Notes under the pieces: model-generated
Seen by the model: the letters and a program-made list of their open reading frames with translations, nothing else
The model's database searches: none
Told to the model about the DNA's origin: nothing
Made by a program: the position numbers and the translations under genes
Part shown: positions 1,012 through 32,720 of the stretch, one piece after another
Numbering within the stretch: position 1 is the stretch's first letter
How the letters are laid out: each line of letters begins with the position of its first letter
Assembly: GCA_963789435.1 (NCBI GenBank)
Contig: CAWBKO010000007.1
Coordinates: 189,364 to 253,363 of the forward strand
From: an uncultured Chloroflexia bacterium
Lineage (GTDB): Bacteria > Chloroflexota > Limnocylindria > QHBO01
Direction of reading: 5' to 3'
Length of the DNA stretch: 64,000 bases

Positions 1012-2675
<1,664 letters not shown>

Positions 2676-2683
2676 CCGGCGCC

Positions 2684-3248
2684 TCAGGATCGAAGGGCGC
2701 GGAATCCGCCATCAGCGACCCTGGCCATGACGAAGACCAGGTCCGCAAGTCGGTTCAGATACGGCACGACGTGCGAGTCGGGAAGACCACCCGCTTCGGC
2801 CAGCGCGACCGAGCGCCGTTCGGCACGCCGAATGGTGGTGCGCGCCACGTCCAGCGCGGCGCCCGTCATCGACTCGCCCGGCACGACGAACTCCTTGGGC
2901 TGTTCCACCAGCCGCTCGAGCTCATCGATCTCGTCCTCGAGGGCGGCGACCATCGGCTCGGTGACCCGCGTCGTGCCGTCGGTCAACCGCTCGCGTCGAT
3001 CAGTCTGGGTGGCAAGCTCGGCGCCGACCACGAACAGCTCCCGCTGCAGGCGCAGGATCAGTTCGGCCAGCCGCGGCCTCGATCCGATCGGTCTCGGCGC
3101 CGATCGTGGCTCGCGCCAGCCCGAGTGCAGAGACGGCTTCATCGGTGGTGCCGTACGCATCGGTCCGCAGATCGGCCTTGCTCACCCGGTCCCCGCCGAA
3201 CAGGAGGCCGGTCGTGCCGGTGTCGCCCTTGCGCGTGTAGATTCGCAT
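2684..3248 (-). CDS. pduO: PduO-type ATP:cob(I)alamin adenosyltransferase (frameshifted)
   Basis: MRIYTRKGDTGTTGL...AYGTTDEA; LQRELFVVGAELA; ARTTIRRAER; YLNRLADLVFVMAR. Confidence 0.92.
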
Positions 3249-3258
3249 CGGGCGCGAC

Positions 3259-3549
3259 CTAGAAGAGGCCCGGAGGCGGCTCCCAGCGCTCGGCCAGCAG
3301 CGTGACCTTGACCGGCGGTCCGACGACCTCCTCGGCCTTGGTCTTCACCGTCTGGATCAGCTCGCCGGCCCACGGGCAGAACGGTGTGGTGAGGACCATC
3401 TTGATCTCGGTCGGCGCGCCGTCGACCCCGAGCTCGATCCCCTTGATCAGGTCGAGGTCAACGATGCTCATCCCGATCTCCGGATCCTGGATGTCGTAGA
3501 GCGCGGTCATCACCTCGTCCACCTTGCCGAGGTTGGAATCAATCGTCAC
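3259..3549 (-). CDS. DUF59/SufT-like metal-sulfur cluster assembly protein
   Basis: LYDIQDPEIGMSIVDLDLI and MVLTTPFCPW match the FeS_assembly_P pattern. GTG start lies 6 nt after TAGACT. Confidence 0.88.
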   Translation of the reverse strand: MTIDSNLGKVDEVMTALYDIQDPEIGMSIVDLDLIKGIELGVDGAPTEIKMVLTTPFCPWAGELIQTVKTKAEEVVGPPVKVTLLAERWEPPPGLF

Positions 3550-3620
3550 GCACACAGTCTACGCTGCTGCGCGAGGGAGCACCCGAGGGCCACCCGTCGA
3601 CGCCGCCTGCCACCCGCTCG

Positions 3621-4346
3621 CTAGAGCAGTCTGTCGTCGAAGACCGGATGCGGGCTGGGGACGAGCGGACGCACGCGGGTATAGCCCTCGTAGATCGGAT
3701 GGCCGCCCTCGATCGCGGCGCGGAGCGCGGCCAGCTCCTCGGCGACGTCCGCCTGGCTGGCGTGGCACGCAAGCGCCTCCGCCTTGCGTCCGGAGACGGG
3801 CGTGATCTCGATCCGATGCGTGGCGGCCTGCTCCTCGGGCGACAGGTCGTAGCGGTTCCCGCTCGGGTCGAAGATCGGGCTGATGACGTAGACGGCGTTG
3901 GGCGCCGTGCCCGCGTCGGCGAGCCGCTCGACCGCCCAGCGCGTGGCGTTGCCGACGACGATGTGATCGGGGTTCCCGGTGACGCCGTGCGGCCCGAAGG
4001 TGATGACCGCCGCCGGACGCCGCTCGGCCATCCAGGCCGCGATCTCGTCGACCAGCTGTTCGAACGGCTGGTCCGCCACACCGCCATCGGCGTAGCCCTC
4101 GAGGAGCGAGACCTCGTCGAGACCGAGAGAGCGCGCGGCACCGATCAGCTCCGCCTCGCGCTGGTCGCCGATCGCGGGATCGGAGGTTCCATCCGGAGAG
4201 CCGGCCTCGCCGCGCGTGACGACCAGGAGCCGCGTGGTGGCTCCCGCGTCATGGGCCAGGGCGAGCGCACCGCCGCAGCCGAAGCTCTCGTCGTCGGGAT
4301 GGGCGAGGACGGCCGCCAGGCCGCCGGGCGCGATCGGGTAGCTCAC
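3621..4346 (-). CDS. PIG-L/LmbE (MshB-like) N-acetyl deacetylase
   Basis: AVLAHPDDESFGCGG, TRGEAG, REAEL..AA..LG, ITFGPHGVTGNPDH, K.EAL.CHASQ. Confidence 0.9.
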   Translation of the reverse strand: MSYPIAPGGLAAVLAHPDDESFGCGGALALAHDAGATTRLLVVTRGEAGSPDGTSDPAIGDQREAELIGAARSLGLDEVSLLEGYADGGVADQPFEQLVDEIAAWMAERRPAAVITFGPHGVTGNPDHIVVGNATRWAVERLADAGTAPNAVYVISPIFDPSGNRYDLSPEEQAATHRIEITPVSGRKAEALACHASQADVAEELAALRAAIEGGHPIYEGYTRVRPLVPSPHPVFDDRLL

Positions 4347-4723
4347 CGATTCTCCTCGGTCGGGTCGACAGGGGTGTCGTCGTCGTCGTCGGAGAGCAGG
4401 GACCATCCCTGGCGCTCGACGCTGGTCCTCATCGTACGCAGGACGGCGAGCTTGCCGCTGGCGACCTCCGCAATGAAGCGGCGGGTGCCGGCGTCATCGA
4501 GGGACGACCCCGGCGGCGCGCTGCCGCGCCCGACGTTGAGCCAGGCGAGGTGGTAGCGATCCATCGGTCCCCAAACTCGCCCGAGCAGCGCATCCGACTC
4601 GAGCAGCCATTGCCGGAAGCCATCCCACTCCGGCTCCGCGACCAGCCGGTCGCCGGTCTCGATCAGCGCATCGGTGGCGGCAAGGAACGCCGTGCGGGAC
4701 ATGACGGCGGGATGCGCGTTCAC
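4343..4723 (-). CDS. Hypothetical protein
   Basis: Compact ORF with TATACT 8 nt upstream of GTG 4723. Its stop overlaps the PIG-L gene start. Confidence 0.6.
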   Translation of the reverse strand: MNAHPAVMSRTAFLAATDALIETGDRLVAEPEWDGFRQWLLESDALLGRVWGPMDRYHLAWLNVGRGSAPPGSSLDDAGTRRFIAEVASGKLAVLRTMRTSVERQGWSLLSDDDDDTPVDPTEENR

Positions 4724-4801
4724 GGTGCCCGAGTATAGAGGCGCGCAAGCACGTCGTTCGTACCATTGCCCGGCCGTGTCCCGCCACCGGAGACTGGCCA
4801 C

Positions 4802-6443
4802 ATGGAACGAAGCCCGAGCGGGCACGCCGCCCGCGCCGTGCTTGCTGTGCTGGCGACCGCCGCGCTCCTGGCGCCTGTCTTCGTGCTGCACGCGCTTCCG
4901 GCCACCGAGCTGGACGCCGTTGGCCTCGGCTGGGTGATTCCGGCGCTTGCCGTCGGGCTGCTCGGCACCGCCGGAGCCGCAACCATCGCCTCACTGGCGA
5001 CCGGCCTGCGGTATGGCTCCCTCGTCTCCCTGCTGCTGGCGGGGGGCTCGGCGGCACTCGTCGGCGGAGCCCTCGCGCGCCTCAGCGGTGGCGGGACGAT
5101 CGCGCTGTCGATCCTGACGGCGGCCGGGCTGATGCTTGCGGCGGCCGTCGCAGAGCGGCTCGGCACGCTGGTGCCCGGGCGTCAAGCTCGCCTCGTGACG
5201 GCCGGCGTCCTGCTGATCGTGGCCGAGGCCATGGTCATCGCCGAGGTGATCCCGACGGTCATGGACGCCATCGCTCCCTATCACCAGGCCCTGCTGGCGG
5301 CCGCGGCCGTGCTTGCCGGCGTCGCGTCCATCGTGGTCGCGACGCGCGACCTTGCCCCCGCGGCCGTCGCCATGGCGGTCGGCGCCACCGCCCTCGCACT
5401 CGCGCGAGGGGAGGGCGCGGAGCTCGCCGTGGGCCTCGCCGCGCTCTCTGGCGCCGGGTTGCTGACCGCTCGCTCGCTGCTCGCGACCGAGCGCACGACC
5501 AACGAGATCGACGGCGAAGCGTTGCCGGCGCTCGCCACACAGCTGGCCGAGGGGGTTCTGCGCTTCGACGGACACCTTCGTCTCCGCTCCTGGAACCCCG
5601 CCGCGGCGGCCGTGCTCGGATTGGACGAAGGGTCGGCGGGCAGCCGGCTCGAAGACCTGCTGGGCCTCTCGCTGTCACAGCTGCCGGCCACCTCCGAGAC
5701 GGTCCTGCACCGGACGCCCGTCGGCGGCCTGGACCTGTCGATCCATCGTGAGCCGAACGCCATGACGGTCGTGGTCCACGACCCCGGCATCGCCATCGAC
5801 GCCGACCGGCTGGGCCGGGAGCTGCGCCGCACCATCGAGGATCTCCTCCAGGCGCGGCGCACGGTCGAGCTGCAGCGCGCCGAACTCGAGCGAGCGACCG
5901 CGATCGATCCGCTCACCGGGGTCTCCAGCCGCGGCTCGATCCTCGATCGGCTACGGATCGAGGTGTCGGAGGCGCGCCGCTACCAGCATCCGGTGGCCGT
6001 CGTCCTCCTCGACGTCGATCATTCGGCGAGATCAACAGCGTCCACGGCATCGCGGGCGGTGATGCCGTGCTTCGAGAGGTCGCGCTCCGCATCCGGCTCC
6101 GCGTCCGAGCGGCCGACGCGATCGGGCGGTCCGGCAGCGACGGGTTGCTCGCGGTCCTGCCCCACACCGACGAGGGCGGTGCGGCCACCTTTGCCGATGT
6201 CCTCCGGCGGCGCATCGGCCAGCGACCGATCTCGGTCGGGAGCGACGGAGATCGCAGCCACGCTCAGCGTCGGGCGTGGCCGTCATGCGGCCCGGCGAGG
6301 ATCTCGACTTCGACGGGCTGATGGCCCGTGCCGAGCAGGCGCTCCGGAGGGCGCGTGATGCCGGTGGCGACCAGATCGCGCTCGACCGGCCCGCCGGCGA
6401 ACCGCGAGTCGACGCCTGGCCGCCCGCGCGCGCGAGCGGCTGA
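4802..6443 (+). CDS. Multi-pass membrane protein with PAS-like region and degenerate GGDEF domain (frameshifted)
   Basis: About 7 hydrophobic helices, then FDGHLRLRSWNPAA (PAS-like), a coiled coil, IDPLTGV, VAVVLLDVDH and RAADAIGRSGSDGL. The C-terminus is in shifted frames, so the end is approximate. Confidence 0.8.
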
Positions 6444-6581
6444 CGCTCGCGGACGATGACGCCACGGACGAGGCAATCGACGAAGGAGCCTAGTCAGCGT
6501 CGGTGCGCTCTGCGCGCCATGATCGTTGTATGACGCGACGGGTCACCTGGAACCGTCCTGCGAACGGCCCACCGGCCAATC

Positions 6582-6626
6582 TTATCCACCGATGTCATAC
6601 AATGTGTGGGTACGTTCTGTGGATAA
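6582..6626. promoter_or_regulatory. Two oppositely oriented DnaA-box matches flanking a TACAAT -10-like hexamer upstream of thyX
   Basis: TTATCCACC at 6582-6590 (8/9 match to TTATCCACA); TGTGGATAA at 6618-6626 (perfect reverse complement); TACAAT at 6598-6603. Confidence 0.6.
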
Positions 6627-6670
6627 CCCCCTACTCATGCCGGCCGCCGGCTGGCACCGTGAGGTCGCAC

Positions 6671-7612
6671 ATGCCCTCCACCTCCACCGACCTCTCCGCC
6701 AAGCTGATCTTCCCGACGAAAGAGATCGTCGAGGAGTTCTACCTGCCGATCATCTACACCGCCTGTCGCACCTGCTACTCGGAGCAGGTTCCCGATCAGA
6801 TCTGGGACAAGGCGGTCAGCCGCCAGATCGCTGACGAGAAGCAGCAGAGCCTGGTGCGGAAGGTGATGGAGTCCGGGCACGGCTCGACCATCGAGCACGT
6901 GAACTTCACGTTTGCCATCAGCGGCGTGACCCGCGCCCTCAGCCACCAGCTGGTTCGGCATCGCGCCGGCACGGCGTTCGACCAGCAGTCGCAACGCTAC
7001 GTCAGCTTCAAGAAGCGCGACAACTACACGGTCCCCGACTCGATCGCGAACGGCGAACTGCCAGACGACCTCGCCGGCCGATTCCAACGAGCCATCGACG
7101 AGAACCTCGACCTCTACGGGCAGCTGCTGCAGGCCGAGGTCCCGGCCGAGGACGCCCGCTTCATCTTCCCGAACGCGATGCAGACCAACCTGATCATGAC
7201 GGTCAACCTGCGCCAGCTCATCCACATGAGCGGGCTGCGCCTCTGCACGATGGCGCAGTGGGAGATCCGCCAGCTCTTCAAGCAGATCCGTCACGAAGTC
7301 TTCCGGGTCAGCCCGTTCTTCGGCAGCTTCCTGGTGCCGAAGTGCGTGCCGCTCGGCTACTGCGACGAGATGGGCAATCGCGACGAGCACTGTCGCATCA
7401 AGCCGCATCGCGACACGGTCATGGCCGTCTGGGAGGCCTATCGCGGCGGCGCGCTCGAGGAGATCGACGGTCCGGTGGTGCCCGACACGAGCCCGTTCCG
7501 CCCGAAGCCGCGACGAGCGGCCCTGCCGGTGGCGGATGGCGACGTGCGCCCCGCGAATCCCGAGCCGTTGGGTGCCGCGGTGGGGCAGGCCGGAGGATCA
7601 GACCGGGTCTGA
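6671..7612 (+). CDS. thyX: FAD-dependent thymidylate synthase
   Basis: GHGSTIEH, SHQLVRHRAGTAFDQQSQRY, EDARFIFP, AQWEIR. GAGG RBS precedes ATG 6671. Confidence 0.95.
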   Translation: MPSTSTDLSAKLIFPTKEIVEEFYLPIIYTACRTCYSEQVPDQIWDKAVSRQIADEKQQSLVRKVMESGHGSTIEHVNFTFAISGVTRALSHQLVRHRAGTAFDQQSQRYVSFKKRDNYTVPDSIANGELPDDLAGRFQRAIDENLDLYGQLLQAEVPAEDARFIFPNAMQTNLIMTVNLRQLIHMSGLRLCTMAQWEIRQLFKQIRHEVFRVSPFFGSFLVPKCVPLGYCDEMGNRDEHCRIKPHRDTVMAVWEAYRGGALEEIDGPVVPDTSPFRPKPRRAALPVADGDVRPANPEPLGAAVGQAGGSDRV

Positions 7613-27431: not shown

Positions 27432-28569
27432 ATGCGACGTATCCGCAACCTGGCGCTGTTCGGGACGGCGTCGGTCATCGTCATCGTCGCCGTGCTCTGG
27501 GTCTTCCGCGCACAGCTGCTGCCGTTCCTCGGCGTGAATTTCGACTCTGGCCCTGGCGGCCGCGCCGAGCTCGTCGTGCCGGAGGGGTATGCCGCATCCG
27601 TCTTCGCCGAGGGCCTCGCCGGACCGCGGTTCATGGCGGTCAGTCCGGACGGCACCTTGTACGTGGCGGAACGCGGGTGCCGATCGAGTCGTCGCATTGC
27701 CGGACGGTGATGAGGACGGCGTCGCCGACGCTGGTGGTCGAGGTCGGCAGCGGGTATGGCAACGCCCACGACATCGAGTTCGATGCGGACGGATCACTGC
27801 TCGTGGCCGGTGAACGCACCCTCTTCCGCGTGACCCTCGATCGATGTCATCCGGCGGGAAGATCGCCGCGAGGTCGTGGTCGATGGGCTCCCGACCGGCG
27901 GGCACTCGACGAAGACGGTCGAGGTGCTTCACGACGGGGATCTGCTGCTCTCAATCGGATCGTCGTGCGATGTGTGCCAGCGAGGAGGATGAGCGGCGAG
28001 CCGCATCAGCATCGTGACTCCCGATGGCGAGCAGACGAGTCTCGATGCGCGGCCTGCGCAACGCGGTCGGCGTCTGGGTCGACGATGCCACGGGGCGAGC
28101 GTGGGCGACGAACATGGGCCGGGATCGACTCGGCGACGATCGGCCGCCCGAGACGCTCTATGAGGTGATCGAGGGCGCCGATGCCGGCTGGCCGCGGTGC
28201 CATGCCGGCGAGCTCCCAGATCCCGAGTTCGGATCGGGGTCCGATGCCTGCGCCGGCGTGGCGATGCCGGCCGCCACCTTCCCGGCGCACATGGCACCGC
28301 TCGCCCTGGTCGGGTGGGAGGATCACCTGGTGATCGCGTTCCACGGCTCGTGGAACTCGTCGCAGAAGGTCGGCTACGCGGTCTGGTGGCTGCCCTGGGA
28401 CGGTGGCCCGGCCGGCGACCCACAGCCGTTCGCCACGGGCTTCCTGCGTGACGGGGAGGTCGATGCGCTCGGCCGGCCGGCGGGTCTGGCAGTCGGCGCG
28501 GACGGCGCGCTGTACGTCAGCGACGACAAGGCGGGACTGATCTACCGCATCGCGCGCAGCGACGGGTAA
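27432..28569 (+). CDS. Glucose/sorbosone (PQQ-dependent sugar) dehydrogenase-like beta-propeller (frameshifted)
   Basis: N-terminal anchor; PEGYAASVFAEGL.GPRFMA, GLRNAVG, AFHGSWN, GRPAGLAVGADGALYVSDD. Confidence 0.85.
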
Positions 28570-28746: not shown

Positions 28747-30276
28747 ATGCTGCGCTCACCATTCCTACTCCCGGTAATGGAGACCGTATCTGTGCGCGGA
28801 GACCCGACGAATCGCCTGAACCCGCAGCTGCCGCATCGGCGGCGCCTCATCGCTGGGGCGTCTGCCGTCGCGCTCGCGTGGTCCTTGGCGTTGACGATCG
28901 CCGCGCCGTCGATTGCGGCTCCAGGCACCCGCGTCAACATCGAGCCGGAGGTGCTCGTGGTGGCAGTGGGTCAGACCGTCATCCTGACCGCGCACGTCGC
29001 CGAGCCGAATGGAGATCCGTCGGTCGGAACCGGGTCGAACACCCACGTGCGCTGGTACTTCGCCGTCGGCAGCCCGAACGACATCGACAGCCCGGGCAAC
29101 AGCTCCGACCTGGATTGCTCGACCGGAGACGCCGGCGAGTGCTCCGTGTCGTACGTCGCCACTTTCGCCGGCACGGACACGATCTGCGCAATCGTGGGCG
29201 GGCCGACGTCGGGGTGCGGCGAGCCGCAGGTCGCTCCCGAATGGGACGACAACGTGGATGTCGTCCTGCGCGTGGTGAGCACCGATCCGGCGCCGACCCC
29301 CACTCCTTCGCCGAGTCCCACGCCGTCACCGACGCCGAGCCCGACCCCGTCGCCAACTCCGTCGCCTACCCCATCGCCGAGCCCCACCCCGTCTCCGACC
29401 CCAAGCCCGACCCCGTCGCCAACTCCTTCGCCGACTCCTTCGCCGAGCCCGACTCCTTCGCCGACGCCGAGCCCGACGCCGAGCCCGACCCCGTCGCCTT
29501 CCCCGACACCTTCCCCGACGCCGAGCCCGACTCCTTCGCCCAGCCCCACGCCGTCTCCGACTCCTTCGCCCAGCCCAACGCCGTCTCCGACTCCTTCGCC
29601 GACCCCGAGCCCCACGCCGTCGCCCACTCCATCGCCCACCCCGAGCCCGACGCCATCGCCGACGCCGTCTCCGACTCCTTCGCCGTCGCCGACGGCAACC
29701 CCGTCGCCGGAAGCGACTCCGGATGCCACGCCAACGCCGGAAACCACCCCCGCGCCGGAGGCCACCCGCGCGCCGGAACCGACGCCGGAGCTCATCGCGG
29801 CGCCCGAGCCGGCGAGCGGGCAAGCACCGACGCCGCCCGGTGCGGGGGGAACGGGAACAGGAGTAGCGCCGTCCGCCGAGGCCGCCCCACCACCCAAGAC
29901 CGGTACACCCGACGTCCTCCCGACGCGGCCAGACGAGGAGGCAGCTCCGCCCCAGCAGACCGCTCCGCCCCTGCCGGTCGCTCAACTGCCGGATGCGGCC
30001 CCGGTGGCTGCGAGCCAACCCGCGGACTGGGTGGGACCGGTGGCCATCGTCGGCCAGGTGCTGTCGGCGGCCGCTCAGGAAATTGTCCGCGTCGTCCGGC
30101 CTGAAGCGGCCGTGGCAGTCGCCACCGAGTTCGGCTTCCCGCTGGTGCTGGCGCTCGCGGTCCTTGGCTATCTCATGATCCAGGGCTACGTCGACCGGCG
30201 CGATCCGAAGCTACGAATGGCGCCCAGGACCAACCTTGAGACGATTCTGCAGTTCAGGACTGAGGAGCAGCTGTGA
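28747..30276 (+). CDS. Secreted/membrane-anchored protein: signal peptide, Ig-like domain, Pro/Thr/Ser stalk, C-terminal TM helix and tail
   Basis: RRRLIAG plus hydrophobic signal; Cys-containing beta domain; PTPS repeats; [18 protein letters not shown] followed by DRRDPKL. Confidence 0.85.
29287..29709 (+). repeat. Coding tandem repeat, ([10 protein letters not shown])n, about 140 codons
   Basis: Imperfect 12/18-nt CCG-ACx-CCx-TCG units; in frame, with no unique spacers. Confidence 0.95.
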
Positions 30277-32720
30277 TCCGGCAGCATCAGCGACCCGAGG
30301 AGTACACCGCGCTCAGCGACCGCATGGGCTACCTCCTCATGCTACGGATCGCAATGGCATCGGTTGCCGTGACATGGAGCGCAATCCGCCCGGAGGCGCT
30401 CGGCACGCCGTTCGCCGTTCTTGCCGCGGTGAGCGCCGGCTACGTCGTGGTCGCGGCGCTCGCCGAGCTTCTGCGACGACGTGCGACTCGGTTCGGTTTT
30501 GCCGTCCTGAGCAGTCTGCTGATCCTCGACGGTCTCTATCTCGCCTTTGCCATGTATGTCACCGGCGCGACGCAGAGTCCGATCCGATTCCTCATCTACC
30601 TGCATCTCGTGGCGGTGTCGCTGCTTGCGTCGTACCGAACGGGGTTGAAGATCGCGCTCTGGCACTCCCTGCTGCTCTTCGTGGTGCTGTACGGCCAGGC
30701 AGCCAGCCTGTTCCCGCCCGTCGACGTGATCCCCGGGCGCGGCATCGACTTCGATCGGATGCCGGTGCTCAACGTGACCTCGTTCTGGCTCTTCGCCCTT
30801 GCGACGTCGATCTTCTCGGCCATGAACGAGCGTGAGCTGCGCCAGCGTCGCGCCGATCTCCAGGCGCTCGTGGACGTGGGGGCGCGCCTCGACGAGGTCG
30901 CCGACCCAGCGCTGCAGGCGCGAGTCGTGCTGGATGGGATGGCGGCGCGGTTCGGCTTCGAGCGCGGGCTCGTGATCGGCGCGGCCGAAGAGAGCCTCGT
31001 GGTCCTGGCGTCGCGCGGCGCCACCGAGTGGTCGGGCTCCGAGCCGCCCGATGCGATCATTCGTCGAGCGTGGGAACGCCGCGAGCTGTTGCCCGTGAAG
31101 CGGATCAACCCCGAAGGCAACCCGCTCCTGTCTGCCGCCCTGCCCGATGCGCGCAACCTGCTGGTGTCGCCGATGATCGCCGATGGTCGGCCGGTCGGCG
31201 CGATCGTTGTTGAGCATCGATCACGGACCGTCTTCGGCGTGGAGCGGCGAGTGGCATCGGTGCTCGGCCAATTCTCGGCTGTGGCGGCGCTGAACCTTCG
31301 GAACGCCGTGCTCCTGCGGCACGTGCAGGACCTCGCGGAGCAGGACTCCCTCACCGGCGCGGCGAATCGGCGCATGTTCCAGCGAACGCTCGAGCGCACG
31401 CTGGAAGCGCAGCCGGCCGACGAGACCGGCTCGGAACGCATCACGGCCGTGCTCTTCATCGACCTCGACGACTTCAAGATCGTCAACGACAGCATGGGTC
31501 ACGCCGCGGGAGACGAGCTCCTCGTCGCGGTCACCGATCGGATCAGGGGGCTCGTCCGGCAGGGAGACCTGGTCGCACGGCTGGGTGGCGACGAGTTCGC
31601 GATCCTGACCGGCGACCTGCCCGACCTGCGGCGCTCACGCGCCATGGCGGAGCGCCTGGTGCGCGACCTGCGCGTGCCGTACGTGCTCAGCGGCAAGACG
31701 GTGACGGTCACCGCCAGCATCGGGATCGCCAGCGCCCGCGATGCCGGCAGCGACGCGCAGGAGGTGGTCCGCAACGCCGATGTCGCGATGTACATGGCGA
31801 AGGCGAACGGAAAGTCGGGCTTCGCGATCTTCGATCCGGGCATGCACGCCGCCATCCGCGCTCGCCACGAGCTCGGCGCCGAGCTGCAGCATGCCGTCGA
31901 TCTCGGACAGCTCCGCCTCGTCTACCAGCCGATCGTGTCGCTGGAGTCCGGGCGCATCTCGGGCCTGGAGGCGCTCGTGCGATGGCAGCATCCGGAGCGC
32001 GGCATCGTGGCTCCGGGCGAGTTCATCGAGATCGCGGAGGAGAATGGCGCGATCCTCCCCATCGGCCGCTGGGTCATGCGCGAGGCGTGTGAGCGCGCGG
32101 TCGCCTGGCAGGCCGCTGGCCTCACCCCGGCCGGCCTCTTCCTCTGCGTGAACGTGTCGGCTCGTGAGATCCAGCATCCCGGCTTCGTCGGTGCCGTCGA
32201 GGAGACCCTGGCCTGGGCGGGGCTCGAGGCCACGCGACTCATTCTCGAGATCACCGAGACCGCGCTCATCAAGGCGACCTCGACGACCGTCGCGACCCTC
32301 GAGGCGCTGCGAGCGCTCGGCGTGCGGGTCGTGATCGACGACTTCGGCACCGGCTACTTCTCGCTCAGCCATCTGCGCCAGTTCCCGGTCGACGCGCTCA
32401 AGATCGCAAGCGAGTTCGTCCAGGTCGCCGAGGGCGACTCGCGGTCGGCAGCACTGGCCGGGGCGATCGTGGCGCTCGGCGACTCGCTCGAGATTGCGAC
32501 GGTGGCCGAGGGAATCGAGACGAAGGAGCACGCGGAGCGGATGCGCTCGCTTGGCTGCACCTACGGTCAGGGCTATTTCTTTGCCAGGCCGATCGGTGTC
32601 GAGGAGATCGAGGCCGGCGTCGAAGGCCTCGCCACTCCCACCCGGTGGCAGCCGGCCGGGGCGCCCGCGAAGGCTCGGCGGAAGCGGCGGACGCTGCGCA
32701 CGGAGCCCAGCGCGGCCTGA
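30273..32720 (+). CDS. Membrane-bound GAF-GGDEF-EAL diguanylate cyclase/phosphodiesterase
   Basis: About 5 TM helices, a GAF-like region, [38 protein letters not shown] and DDFGTGY. The start overlaps the upstream stop. Confidence 0.93.

Follow-up and report, generated by a model that had tools for sequence, protein, structure and literature searches.

A conserved C-terminal anchor accompanies six-helix membrane signaling enzymes in Chloroflexota and Actinomycetota: a candidate two-protein transmembrane receptor

To our knowledge, the inputs of most membrane diguanylate cyclases and of many sensor kinases have yet to be assigned. Here we describe two adjacent genes in a 64,000-nucleotide stretch of DNA from an uncultured Chloroflexia bacterium of the Limnocylindria (contig CAWBKO010000007.1, positions 189,364–253,363 of the forward strand; hereafter the window), of which the first encodes a stalked surface protein (gene 1) and the second a membrane protein that is predicted from its domains to be an enzyme of both cyclic di-GMP (c-di-GMP) synthesis (GGDEF) and hydrolysis (EAL) (gene 2). 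We propose that the two products probably form a two-protein transmembrane signaling unit, in which the C-terminal anchor of the surface protein docks into the six-transmembrane-helix (6TM) domain of the enzyme and relays the state of the surface protein to it. An input subunit would then be readable from the genome, as a surface protein of which the conserved anchor, and no other part, tracks the presence of a six-helix transducer. The features of the pair are given below by window position, all on the forward (+) strand, with the basis of each in brackets; structural models are from AlphaFold2 (AF2).

28747–30276, +: gene 1, a secreted, C-terminally anchored surface protein of 509 residues, the putative partner or input subunit (open reading frame)
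28837–28920, +: predicted signal peptide of gene 1, residues 31–58, with RRRL, a hydrophobic core and an AxA-like end (hydropathy, sequence)
28924–29286, +: Ig-like beta-sandwich ectodomain of gene 1, about residues 60–180 (alignment, AF2, Foldseek)
29287–30030, +: stalk of gene 1, a PT/PS repeat to about 29750 and then a Pro/Ala-rich linker (composition, tandem repeats)
30031–30273, +: conserved C-terminal module of gene 1, residues 429–509 (81 residues) (alignments, profile search)
30130–30192, +: single transmembrane (TM) helix of gene 1, residues 462–482 (hydropathy, sequence)
30193–30216, +: predicted cytoplasmic juxtamembrane motif DRRDPKLR of gene 1, residues 483–490 (sequence, conservation in two phyla)
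30262–30276, +: translational coupling signals, namely a GAGGAG Shine-Dalgarno sequence (30262–30267), a 5-nucleotide spacer and a GTGA overlap (sequence, ortholog junctions)
30273–32720, +: gene 2, a 6TM-GAF-GGDEF-EAL membrane c-di-GMP enzyme of 815 residues, the putative transducer subunit (open reading frame, domain matches)
30294–30893, +: PilS-like six-helix membrane domain of gene 2, predicted to have both termini inside (AF2 helices, alignments)
30906–31319, +: GAF domain of gene 2 (weak Pfam match, AF2 model, Foldseek)
31338–31814, +: GGDEF domain of gene 2, with GGDEF at residues 438–442 and the I-site RQGD at residues 429–432 (Pfam, motifs)
31881–32591, +: EAL domain of gene 2, with EALVRW, EITE, DDFGTG, EGIE and QGYFF (Pfam, motifs)

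Co-occurrence of the gene 1 tail and the gene 2 membrane domain in two phyla

The last ~80 residues of gene 1, from which we built a profile, belong to a family that appears to be undescribed in the domain libraries and literature that we searched: Pfam and NCBIfam contain no model for this tail, and no description of a tail protein paired with a 6TM sensor was found in the literature. A word-based homolog search with the tail returned only four proteins, whereas a full hidden Markov model scan of 1.84 billion representative proteins with the profile returned 1525 protein clusters at E ≤ 1e-3, including 235 at E ≤ 1e-10. In nearly all of the matches listed, the similarity lay at the extreme C terminus of the protein.

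Of 301 genomes searched from the class to which the window belongs, the profile matched 48, essentially once in each, and these fell into two main families. We fetched 30 Limnocylindria loci, and in all 30 the ortholog of gene 2 lay directly 3′ of the tail gene; conversely, orthologs of gene 1 stood directly 5′ of the gene 2 ortholog at every related Limnocylindria locus compared. Genomes of the same genus that did not have a full-length gene 2 ortholog did not have the tail either. Searching from the other side, with the alignment of the membrane domain, identified 263 genomes; among the best 80 of these, all Limnocylindria, an open reading frame with the tail ended at the start of the sensor gene in 79, and the remaining locus was a contig end. 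The same correspondence held across the phylum: among 401 sampled Chloroflexota genomes, the tail was present with convincing E-values in 13, and the membrane-domain profile matched exactly those 13, of which two belong to another family outside the Limnocylindria class.

A tail subtype ending in IDRRDPKLALAP was found at 169 loci, and the best 80 of these, which we examined, all lie in Actinomycetota. The carriers among these 80 include uncultured Nitriliruptorales, Acidimicrobiales, Solirubrobacterales, Frankiales and Mycobacteriales as well as the cultured Geodermatophilus obscurus DSM 43162, G. pulveris, G. africanus and a Kineococcus strain. A homologous 6TM-GAF gene adjoins the tail gene at about 73 of the 80 loci and is mostly directly downstream, although the sensor gene is convergent at four loci and upstream at two; two of the loci without adjacency are contig ends. 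At six loci the pair is present as a tandem double, in the order partner-cyclase-partner-cyclase (L183, L187, L190, L191, L214 and L218). Among 401 sampled Actinomycetota genomes, 24 had a strong match to the sensor, and 23 of the 24 also had the tail. A weaker tier of 6TM matches (E 1e-11 to 1e-21) was found in 16 Actinomycetota genomes, none of which had the tail (for example, G877, G1054, G955 and G890). These proteins, mostly about 550–700 residues long, appear to be sensors of a related family that has no need of an anchor protein.

Linkage of tail homologs to genes for diguanylate cyclases or phosphodiesterases had been proposed beforehand, in a first-pass annotation of this DNA, as a check on the idea that the pair is a two-part c-di-GMP module, and it was borne out both by the adjacency at these loci and by the matching phyletic profiles. 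Could this linkage be nothing but inherited gene order, with no functional connection between the neighbors? Within the genus of the window, the pair does sit in a larger syntenic block (hppD-GSDH-gene1-gene2-proS, where GSDH is a glucose/sorbosone dehydrogenase-like gene), as this explanation would predict. Beyond the genus, however, the pair persists where the flanks differ: the hppD or proS neighbors of the window were retained in just 9 of the 51 Limnocylindria loci with full flanks, indicating that the pair is independent of its surroundings. Because the pair outlasts its flanks, spans two phyla, undergoes domain swaps, is duplicated in tandem as a unit, shows matching presence and absence, and keeps a 4-nucleotide overlap, the gene-order explanation is contradicted on many sides, and we regard it as extremely improbable.

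Conserved overlap of the two reading frames

The two genes meet in the sequence CAGCTGTGATCC, in which the TGA stop codon of gene 1 occupies positions 30274–30276 and the GTG start codon of gene 2 occupies positions 30273–30275. The resulting GTGA (30273–30276) is a 4-nucleotide overlap, with three bases counted as common to the two codons, and the Glu-Glu codons within the C-terminal EEQL of gene 1 provide the Shine-Dalgarno sequence for gene 2. Orthologs conserve this junction, and of 160 non-redundant homologous pairs drawn from both phyla, 146 retain an NTGA overlap (ATGA, GTGA or TTGA), which indicates that the overlap of stop and start is not due to chance. In promoter and terminator scans, nothing exceeded the shuffled controls.

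A constant anchor and membrane domain join variable ectodomains to exchangeable outputs

The extracellular parts of the partners varied widely. Besides the Ig-like domain of the window, the tail was found on proteins with a PATR beta-helix and Big_1 domains (L061), an NHL propeller (L062), VWA and DUF7507 domains (L094 for VWA), Big_13 domains or a TasA/camelysin-like domain, and also on short acidic segments and, at the other extreme, on giant multi-domain rods and in open frames of more than 1700 residues. In one of the two Chloroflexota genomes from outside the class (G600), for example, the partner is a 796-residue protein with a PATR beta-helix, Big_1 and a PT stalk, terminating in AAFPLILLVLMLLFIAVQNEIDRRDPKL; in the other (G391) it is an NHL-propeller protein with an equivalent anchor (IDRREPKL). 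Both of these partner genes have an ATGA overlap with a 6TM-GAF-GGDEF gene that lacks EAL.

The outputs varied as well, comprising GGDEF-EAL, GGDEF alone, and a HisKA_3-HATPase kinase. Some pairs, among them L168:3017-7057, L172:3988-6737 and L213:3245-6998, have the kinase output (6TM-GAF-HisKA_3-HATPase), with a REC-EAL response-regulator gene just upstream of the L168 partner gene and a NarL-type response regulator near L213; the L168 and L172 partners have short, acidic, Thr-rich ectodomains. The first-pass idea of a two-part module is supported. In its favor are the linkage, the phyletic match and the constancy of exactly those parts that had been named as the likely contact, namely the gene 1 TM helix and tail and the membrane domain of the enzyme; its scope extends past c-di-GMP, because some of the partner enzymes are histidine kinases.

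Across the 160 pairs, seven tail positions are nearly fixed: a Pro (97%) and a Gln (99%) in the TM helix, and Asp (100%), Asp (99%), Pro (99%), Lys (96%) and Leu (99%) in DRRDPKLR. On the sensor, the conserved sites are R17 and R25 in the N-terminal helix and TM1, D86 in TM3, the SYRTGLK loop between TM4 and TM5, and NERELR after TM6. Judging from the alignments, the conserved residues of both proteins cluster where contact is plausible. A variable sensor part, a constant connector, a constant transducer and exchangeable outputs together make up the pattern of an input module.

The direction of information flow could in principle be reversed, such that the enzyme alters the conformation, retention or shedding of the partner and hence adhesion, acting through its GAF domain or I-site together with the 6TM domain, by a logic like that of LapD, LapG and LapA. 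Adjacency and coupling are compatible with signaling in either direction, the intact RQGD I-site would permit c-di-GMP binding, and the partners with Ig, VWA, NHL and beta-helix ectodomains are adhesin-like. Inside-out control nevertheless seems quite improbable, in that this anchor/6TM-GAF combination also serves HisKA_3 kinases whose neighborhoods include response regulators, a hallmark of an input module, and in that no protease or LapG-like gene recurred around the pairs in our neighborhood survey.

A different objection is that the tail passes no signal at all and is merely an anchoring or sorting signal, or an aid to biogenesis through co-insertion or mutual stabilization. In layout it does resemble C-terminal sorting signals (LPXTG, PEP-CTERM, GlyGly-CTERM and PGF-CTERM): there too, a short motif is followed by a TM helix and a cluster of basic residues, and the surface proteins that bear it are otherwise unrelated and often have Pro/Thr-rich linkers; coupling could serve co-insertion, and a few tail genes have no adjacent sensor. 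The tail differs from these signals, however, in running about 20–27 residues past the basic cluster, and the NCBIfam sorting-signal models (CTERM, LPXTG) gave no match on the tail in eight tail-bearing proteins. No recurrent sortase-like gene cluster was found in the 80 Actinomycetota loci; the sole constant neighbor is a signal transducer, rather than a sortase, exosortase or rhombosortase. In addition, the near-invariance of the Gln and of D..DPKL in two phyla goes beyond the demands of plain anchoring. We therefore consider a sorting or biogenesis role on its own improbable, and continue with the reading in which the anchor docks onto the 6TM domain.

Anatomy of the surface protein and its membrane enzyme

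For gene 1, the open reading frame, the AF2 model and hydropathy agree with the layout described in the first-pass annotation: a signal peptide, a Cys-containing Ig-like domain, a PTPS stalk, a single TM helix and a charged tail. The layout of the signal peptide is common to the orthologs. The ectodomain is all-beta (AF2 pLDDT, the predicted local confidence, 88.6; predicted TM-score 0.80), and its four cysteines (124, 132, 147 and 157) are invariant in an alignment of 19 orthologs; we propose that it is disulfide-bonded. Foldseek placed the model among Ig-like (Ig V), macroglobulin MG, Rib and S-layer beta-sandwiches at modest TM-scores of 0.4–0.5, and the Pfam PKD match to the ectodomain (19.7–22.8 bits) was under its cut-off. 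The stalk, earlier put at ~140 residues, proved to be longer. It consists of a PT/PS repeat of ~155 residues (residues ~181–335, with 74 Pro, 37 Thr and 37 Ser), encoded in part by DNA-level tandem repeats at 29287–29692, and a further Pro/Ala-rich stretch of about 95 residues, and its length differs among orthologs. In the C-terminal module that follows, an amphipathic helix precedes the TM helix, after which come DRRDPKLR and a short acidic terminus.

Gene 2 has six TM helices rather than the approximately five counted at first. The AF2 helices span residues 8–38, 47–70, 72–96, 105–118, 121–143 and 163–207, and hydropathy agrees. Basic residues mark the loops that would be cytoplasmic, both ends of the domain would likewise be cytoplasmic, and the external loops are only 5–20 residues long in the AF2 model. 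Ten residues of the membrane domain are invariant in our alignments (R17, R25, D86, S120, R122, G124, W130, N185, E186 and E188). The possibility that this domain is a rhomboid- or sortase-like enzyme was rejected: the His in TM4 is not conserved (Tyr or Gln in some members), and the invariant Ser lies at the cytoplasmic end of TM4, beside the YRTGLK loop.

The GAF, GGDEF and EAL domains that had been recognized downstream were all recovered, as was the overlap of the gene 1 TGA with the gene 2 GTG. The GAF domain is weak in Pfam (PF01590, 16.9 bits, E 0.0096, under the cut-off of 22.4) but is confirmed by its modeled structure, with AF2 pLDDT about 90 across residues 212–349 and Foldseek TM-scores (target-normalized) of 0.73–0.76 against the solved GAF domains 3oov, 3cit and 3ci6; the GAF domain of the homolog L172 scored 41.8 bits. 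The GGDEF domain (PF00990) is above its cut-off of 23.8 bits (142.4 bits, E 1.4e-41; TIGR00254, 128.3 bits), and the RxxD I-site lies five residues ahead of the intact GGDEF motif. The EAL domain (PF00563) scored 236.4 bits (E 3.8e-70), with the usual catalytic motifs complete.

A docking model for the pair

Docking of the anchor and DRRDPKL onto the 6TM domain is proposed because of the input-module pattern described above and because of the precedent of PilS and PilA. According to the model, gene 1 would be exported, with its variable ectodomain held outside the cell on the long Pro/Thr/Ser stalk, and would remain anchored by its C-terminal TM helix with DRRDPKL at the cytoplasmic end. The anchor and tail would dock onto the PilS-like six-helix domain of gene 2, translational coupling through NTGA would supply both proteins together, and the state of the surface protein would be relayed by way of the 6TM bundle and then GAF to the output, which in the window would be the balance of c-di-GMP synthesis by GGDEF versus hydrolysis by EAL. 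The state in question might consist in a bound ligand, a pull on the protein, its engagement in a surface structure, or its shedding. Physical contact, a 1:1 stoichiometry, the nature of the signal, its direction and the very term 'surface sensing' are things that we infer from this pattern, and it would be a guess that acidic residues of the tail contact the invariant arginines on the cytoplasmic face of the sensor.

Several observations weigh against this model. Three Actinomycetota tail genes (L195, L206 and L216) had no sensor within the fetched flank, and one of the 401 Actinomycetota genomes (G731) had the sensor without a detected tail. The terminal EEQL may owe its conservation to constraint on the RNA, as the ribosome-binding site of gene 2, and not to a function of the protein. 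The match of gene 2 to the Pfam family 6TM_PilS (PF25323) was only 11.5 bits (E 0.24), against a cut-off of 27 bits. Mutual information computed for 81 columns of the tail against 221 of the sensor in the 160 pairs (effective number ~100), after average product correction, was dominated by the split between phyla, with the top-scoring position pairs tracking that split (for example, tail position 62, which is Arg versus Ala). Finally, the close relatives of the window pair are all uncultured.

A broader proposition, to which we give about even chances, is that the anchor and tail (FP-x-L ... Q ... DRRDPKL) act as a portable docking tag, by which almost any extracellular module can plug into a PilS-like 6TM-GAF transducer with an exchangeable output (c-di-GMP synthesis, c-di-GMP turnover or phosphorelay), so that the pairs would represent a modular class of two-chain, outside-in receptors of monoderm soil bacteria (Actinomycetota and Chloroflexota). 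If docking is true, the tail would found a new protein family, and its presence would supply a predictive rule for the inputs of cyclases and kinases that number in the hundreds among soil Actinomycetota and Chloroflexota. The tandem double pairs are natural material for studying cognate specificity.

Comparison with known membrane sensors and their partners

We rate the pair as a probable case of accessory-protein-gated, PilS-like intramembrane sensing. In Pseudomonas aeruginosa, the six TM segments of PilS allow a direct interaction with the pilin PilA (PMC6058289). Like PilS and PilA, the pair combines a six-TM sensor of the 6TM_PilS type with a partner that a single conserved helix keeps in the membrane. 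The resemblance in the sensor is weak for the window and stronger for the kinase-output homolog L172, which matches 6TM_PilS at the cut-off (27.0 bits, E 4.2e-6) and is 40% identical to gene 2 across the 6TM domain. Unlike PilA, however, the partner is not a pilin. In place of a prepilin leader it has a Sec-type signal peptide, and it also has a C-terminal anchor (N terminus out, C terminus in) and a cytoplasmic DRRDPKL motif. The transducer continues into GAF and then GGDEF-EAL (or, in relatives, GGDEF alone or HisKA_3), with no PilR, and the genes are translationally coupled and reside in Chloroflexota and Actinomycetota. If docking is true, the principle of intramembrane sensing known from PilA and PilS would extend beyond pilins.

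Other partners act on sensors through contacts between TM helices. The single-pass membrane proteins YycH and YycI regulate WalK in this way, as does MgrB with PhoQ. These are unrelated families, their partners are N-terminally anchored or tiny, and they show neither the swapping of large ectodomains nor a conserved juxtamembrane DRRDPKL. In the YfiBNR (TpbB) system, a membrane cyclase, YfiN, is controlled by the extracytoplasmic product of a neighboring gene, YfiR. Similarly, in the case of DbfQ and DbfS, a neighboring, non-cytoplasmic gene product is reported to set the activity of a membrane signaling enzyme (PMC12714742). The partners in these two systems are small soluble periplasmic proteins acting on a periplasmic sensor domain, whereas here the partner is anchored in the membrane, its conserved part is the TM helix and cytoplasmic tail, and the sensor is nearly without external loops.

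The Actinomycetota relatives recall the TasA-TapA-SipW system of Bacillus subtilis, in which we know of no dedicated 6TM cyclase. Many of the Actinomycetota partners have a TasA/camelysin-like ectodomain (PF12389, 32.1 bits), and genes for a TasA-like protein and a SipW-type signal peptidase often lie beside the pair. In G. obscurus (L215), a tasA-like gene (2581–3240), sipW (3237–3932), the partner (4053–5162) and the cyclase (5159–6811) follow one another; this locus and one from Kineococcus sp. (L203:1822-7374) each form an apparent operon of a tasA-like gene, a SipW-type peptidase, a TasA-like partner and a 6TM-GAF-GGDEF gene, which connects TasA-like surface proteins with a cyclase of their own. 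If docking is true, TasA-like surface fibers of Actinomycetota would be tied to c-di-GMP. The window differs in its Ig-like ectodomain, and in Limnocylindria the pair shows no linkage to tasA or sipW: one genome (G000) has no PF12389 or TIGR02228 match, and in another (G020) these two genes are about 288 kb distant.

These relatives bear on a further alternative, in which the 6TM domain measures the free membrane pool of the partner, as in sensing of PilA by PilS, and c-di-GMP feeds back on the expression of the surface structure; the pool would fall as partner molecules join that structure or are released into it. The PilS-like membrane domain is in keeping with such inventory sensing, since PilS binds membrane PilA for pilin autoregulation. 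In Caulobacter, membrane pilin subunits are likewise reported to be a signal that, after surface attachment, couples attachment to cell-cycle initiation (PMC7196804), and TasA-like partners beside tasA-like and SipW-type genes would suit a monitored fiber anchor. Set against this are the absence of tasA and sipW linkage in Limnocylindria, the single Ig-like domain of the window protein, which gives no sign of polymerization, and the translational coupling, which suggests a fixed ratio rather than a free pool. We consider inventory sensing unlikely, and relay of the surface-protein state through a docked anchor remains the reading that we favor.

Additional observations on the loci and assemblies

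Three apparent fusions of partner and sensor (P0107, P0085 and the L135 open reading frame) were rejected as natural fusions and as Rosetta-stone evidence, because error-prone assemblies had introduced frameshifts or garbled the gene calls. At L135:3615-7454, from a metagenome-assembled genome built from nanopore reads, a 1-nucleotide indel after DARDPKL joins the partner and sensor frames into a 1279-residue open reading frame; the same genome has a second, unfused pair (L136), and the fusion is probably an assembly error. MAFFT aligned the partner anchor with the TM4–TM5 stretch of the sensor, probably through chance similarity of hydrophobic helices. In the stop-free frame that carries the tail at L102:1753-4974, three rhodanese-like matches lie near the start; they may belong to an upstream gene that lies in the same open frame of GC-rich DNA, and not to a true ectodomain.

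Because the source assembly of the window comprises 9 contigs yet is rated 61% complete, long-read indel errors may be common in it. The GSDH-like gene 5′ of gene 1 (27432–28569) is spread over three frames (27432–27710, about 27677–28168, and 28024–28569) and is therefore either frameshifted or a pseudogene.

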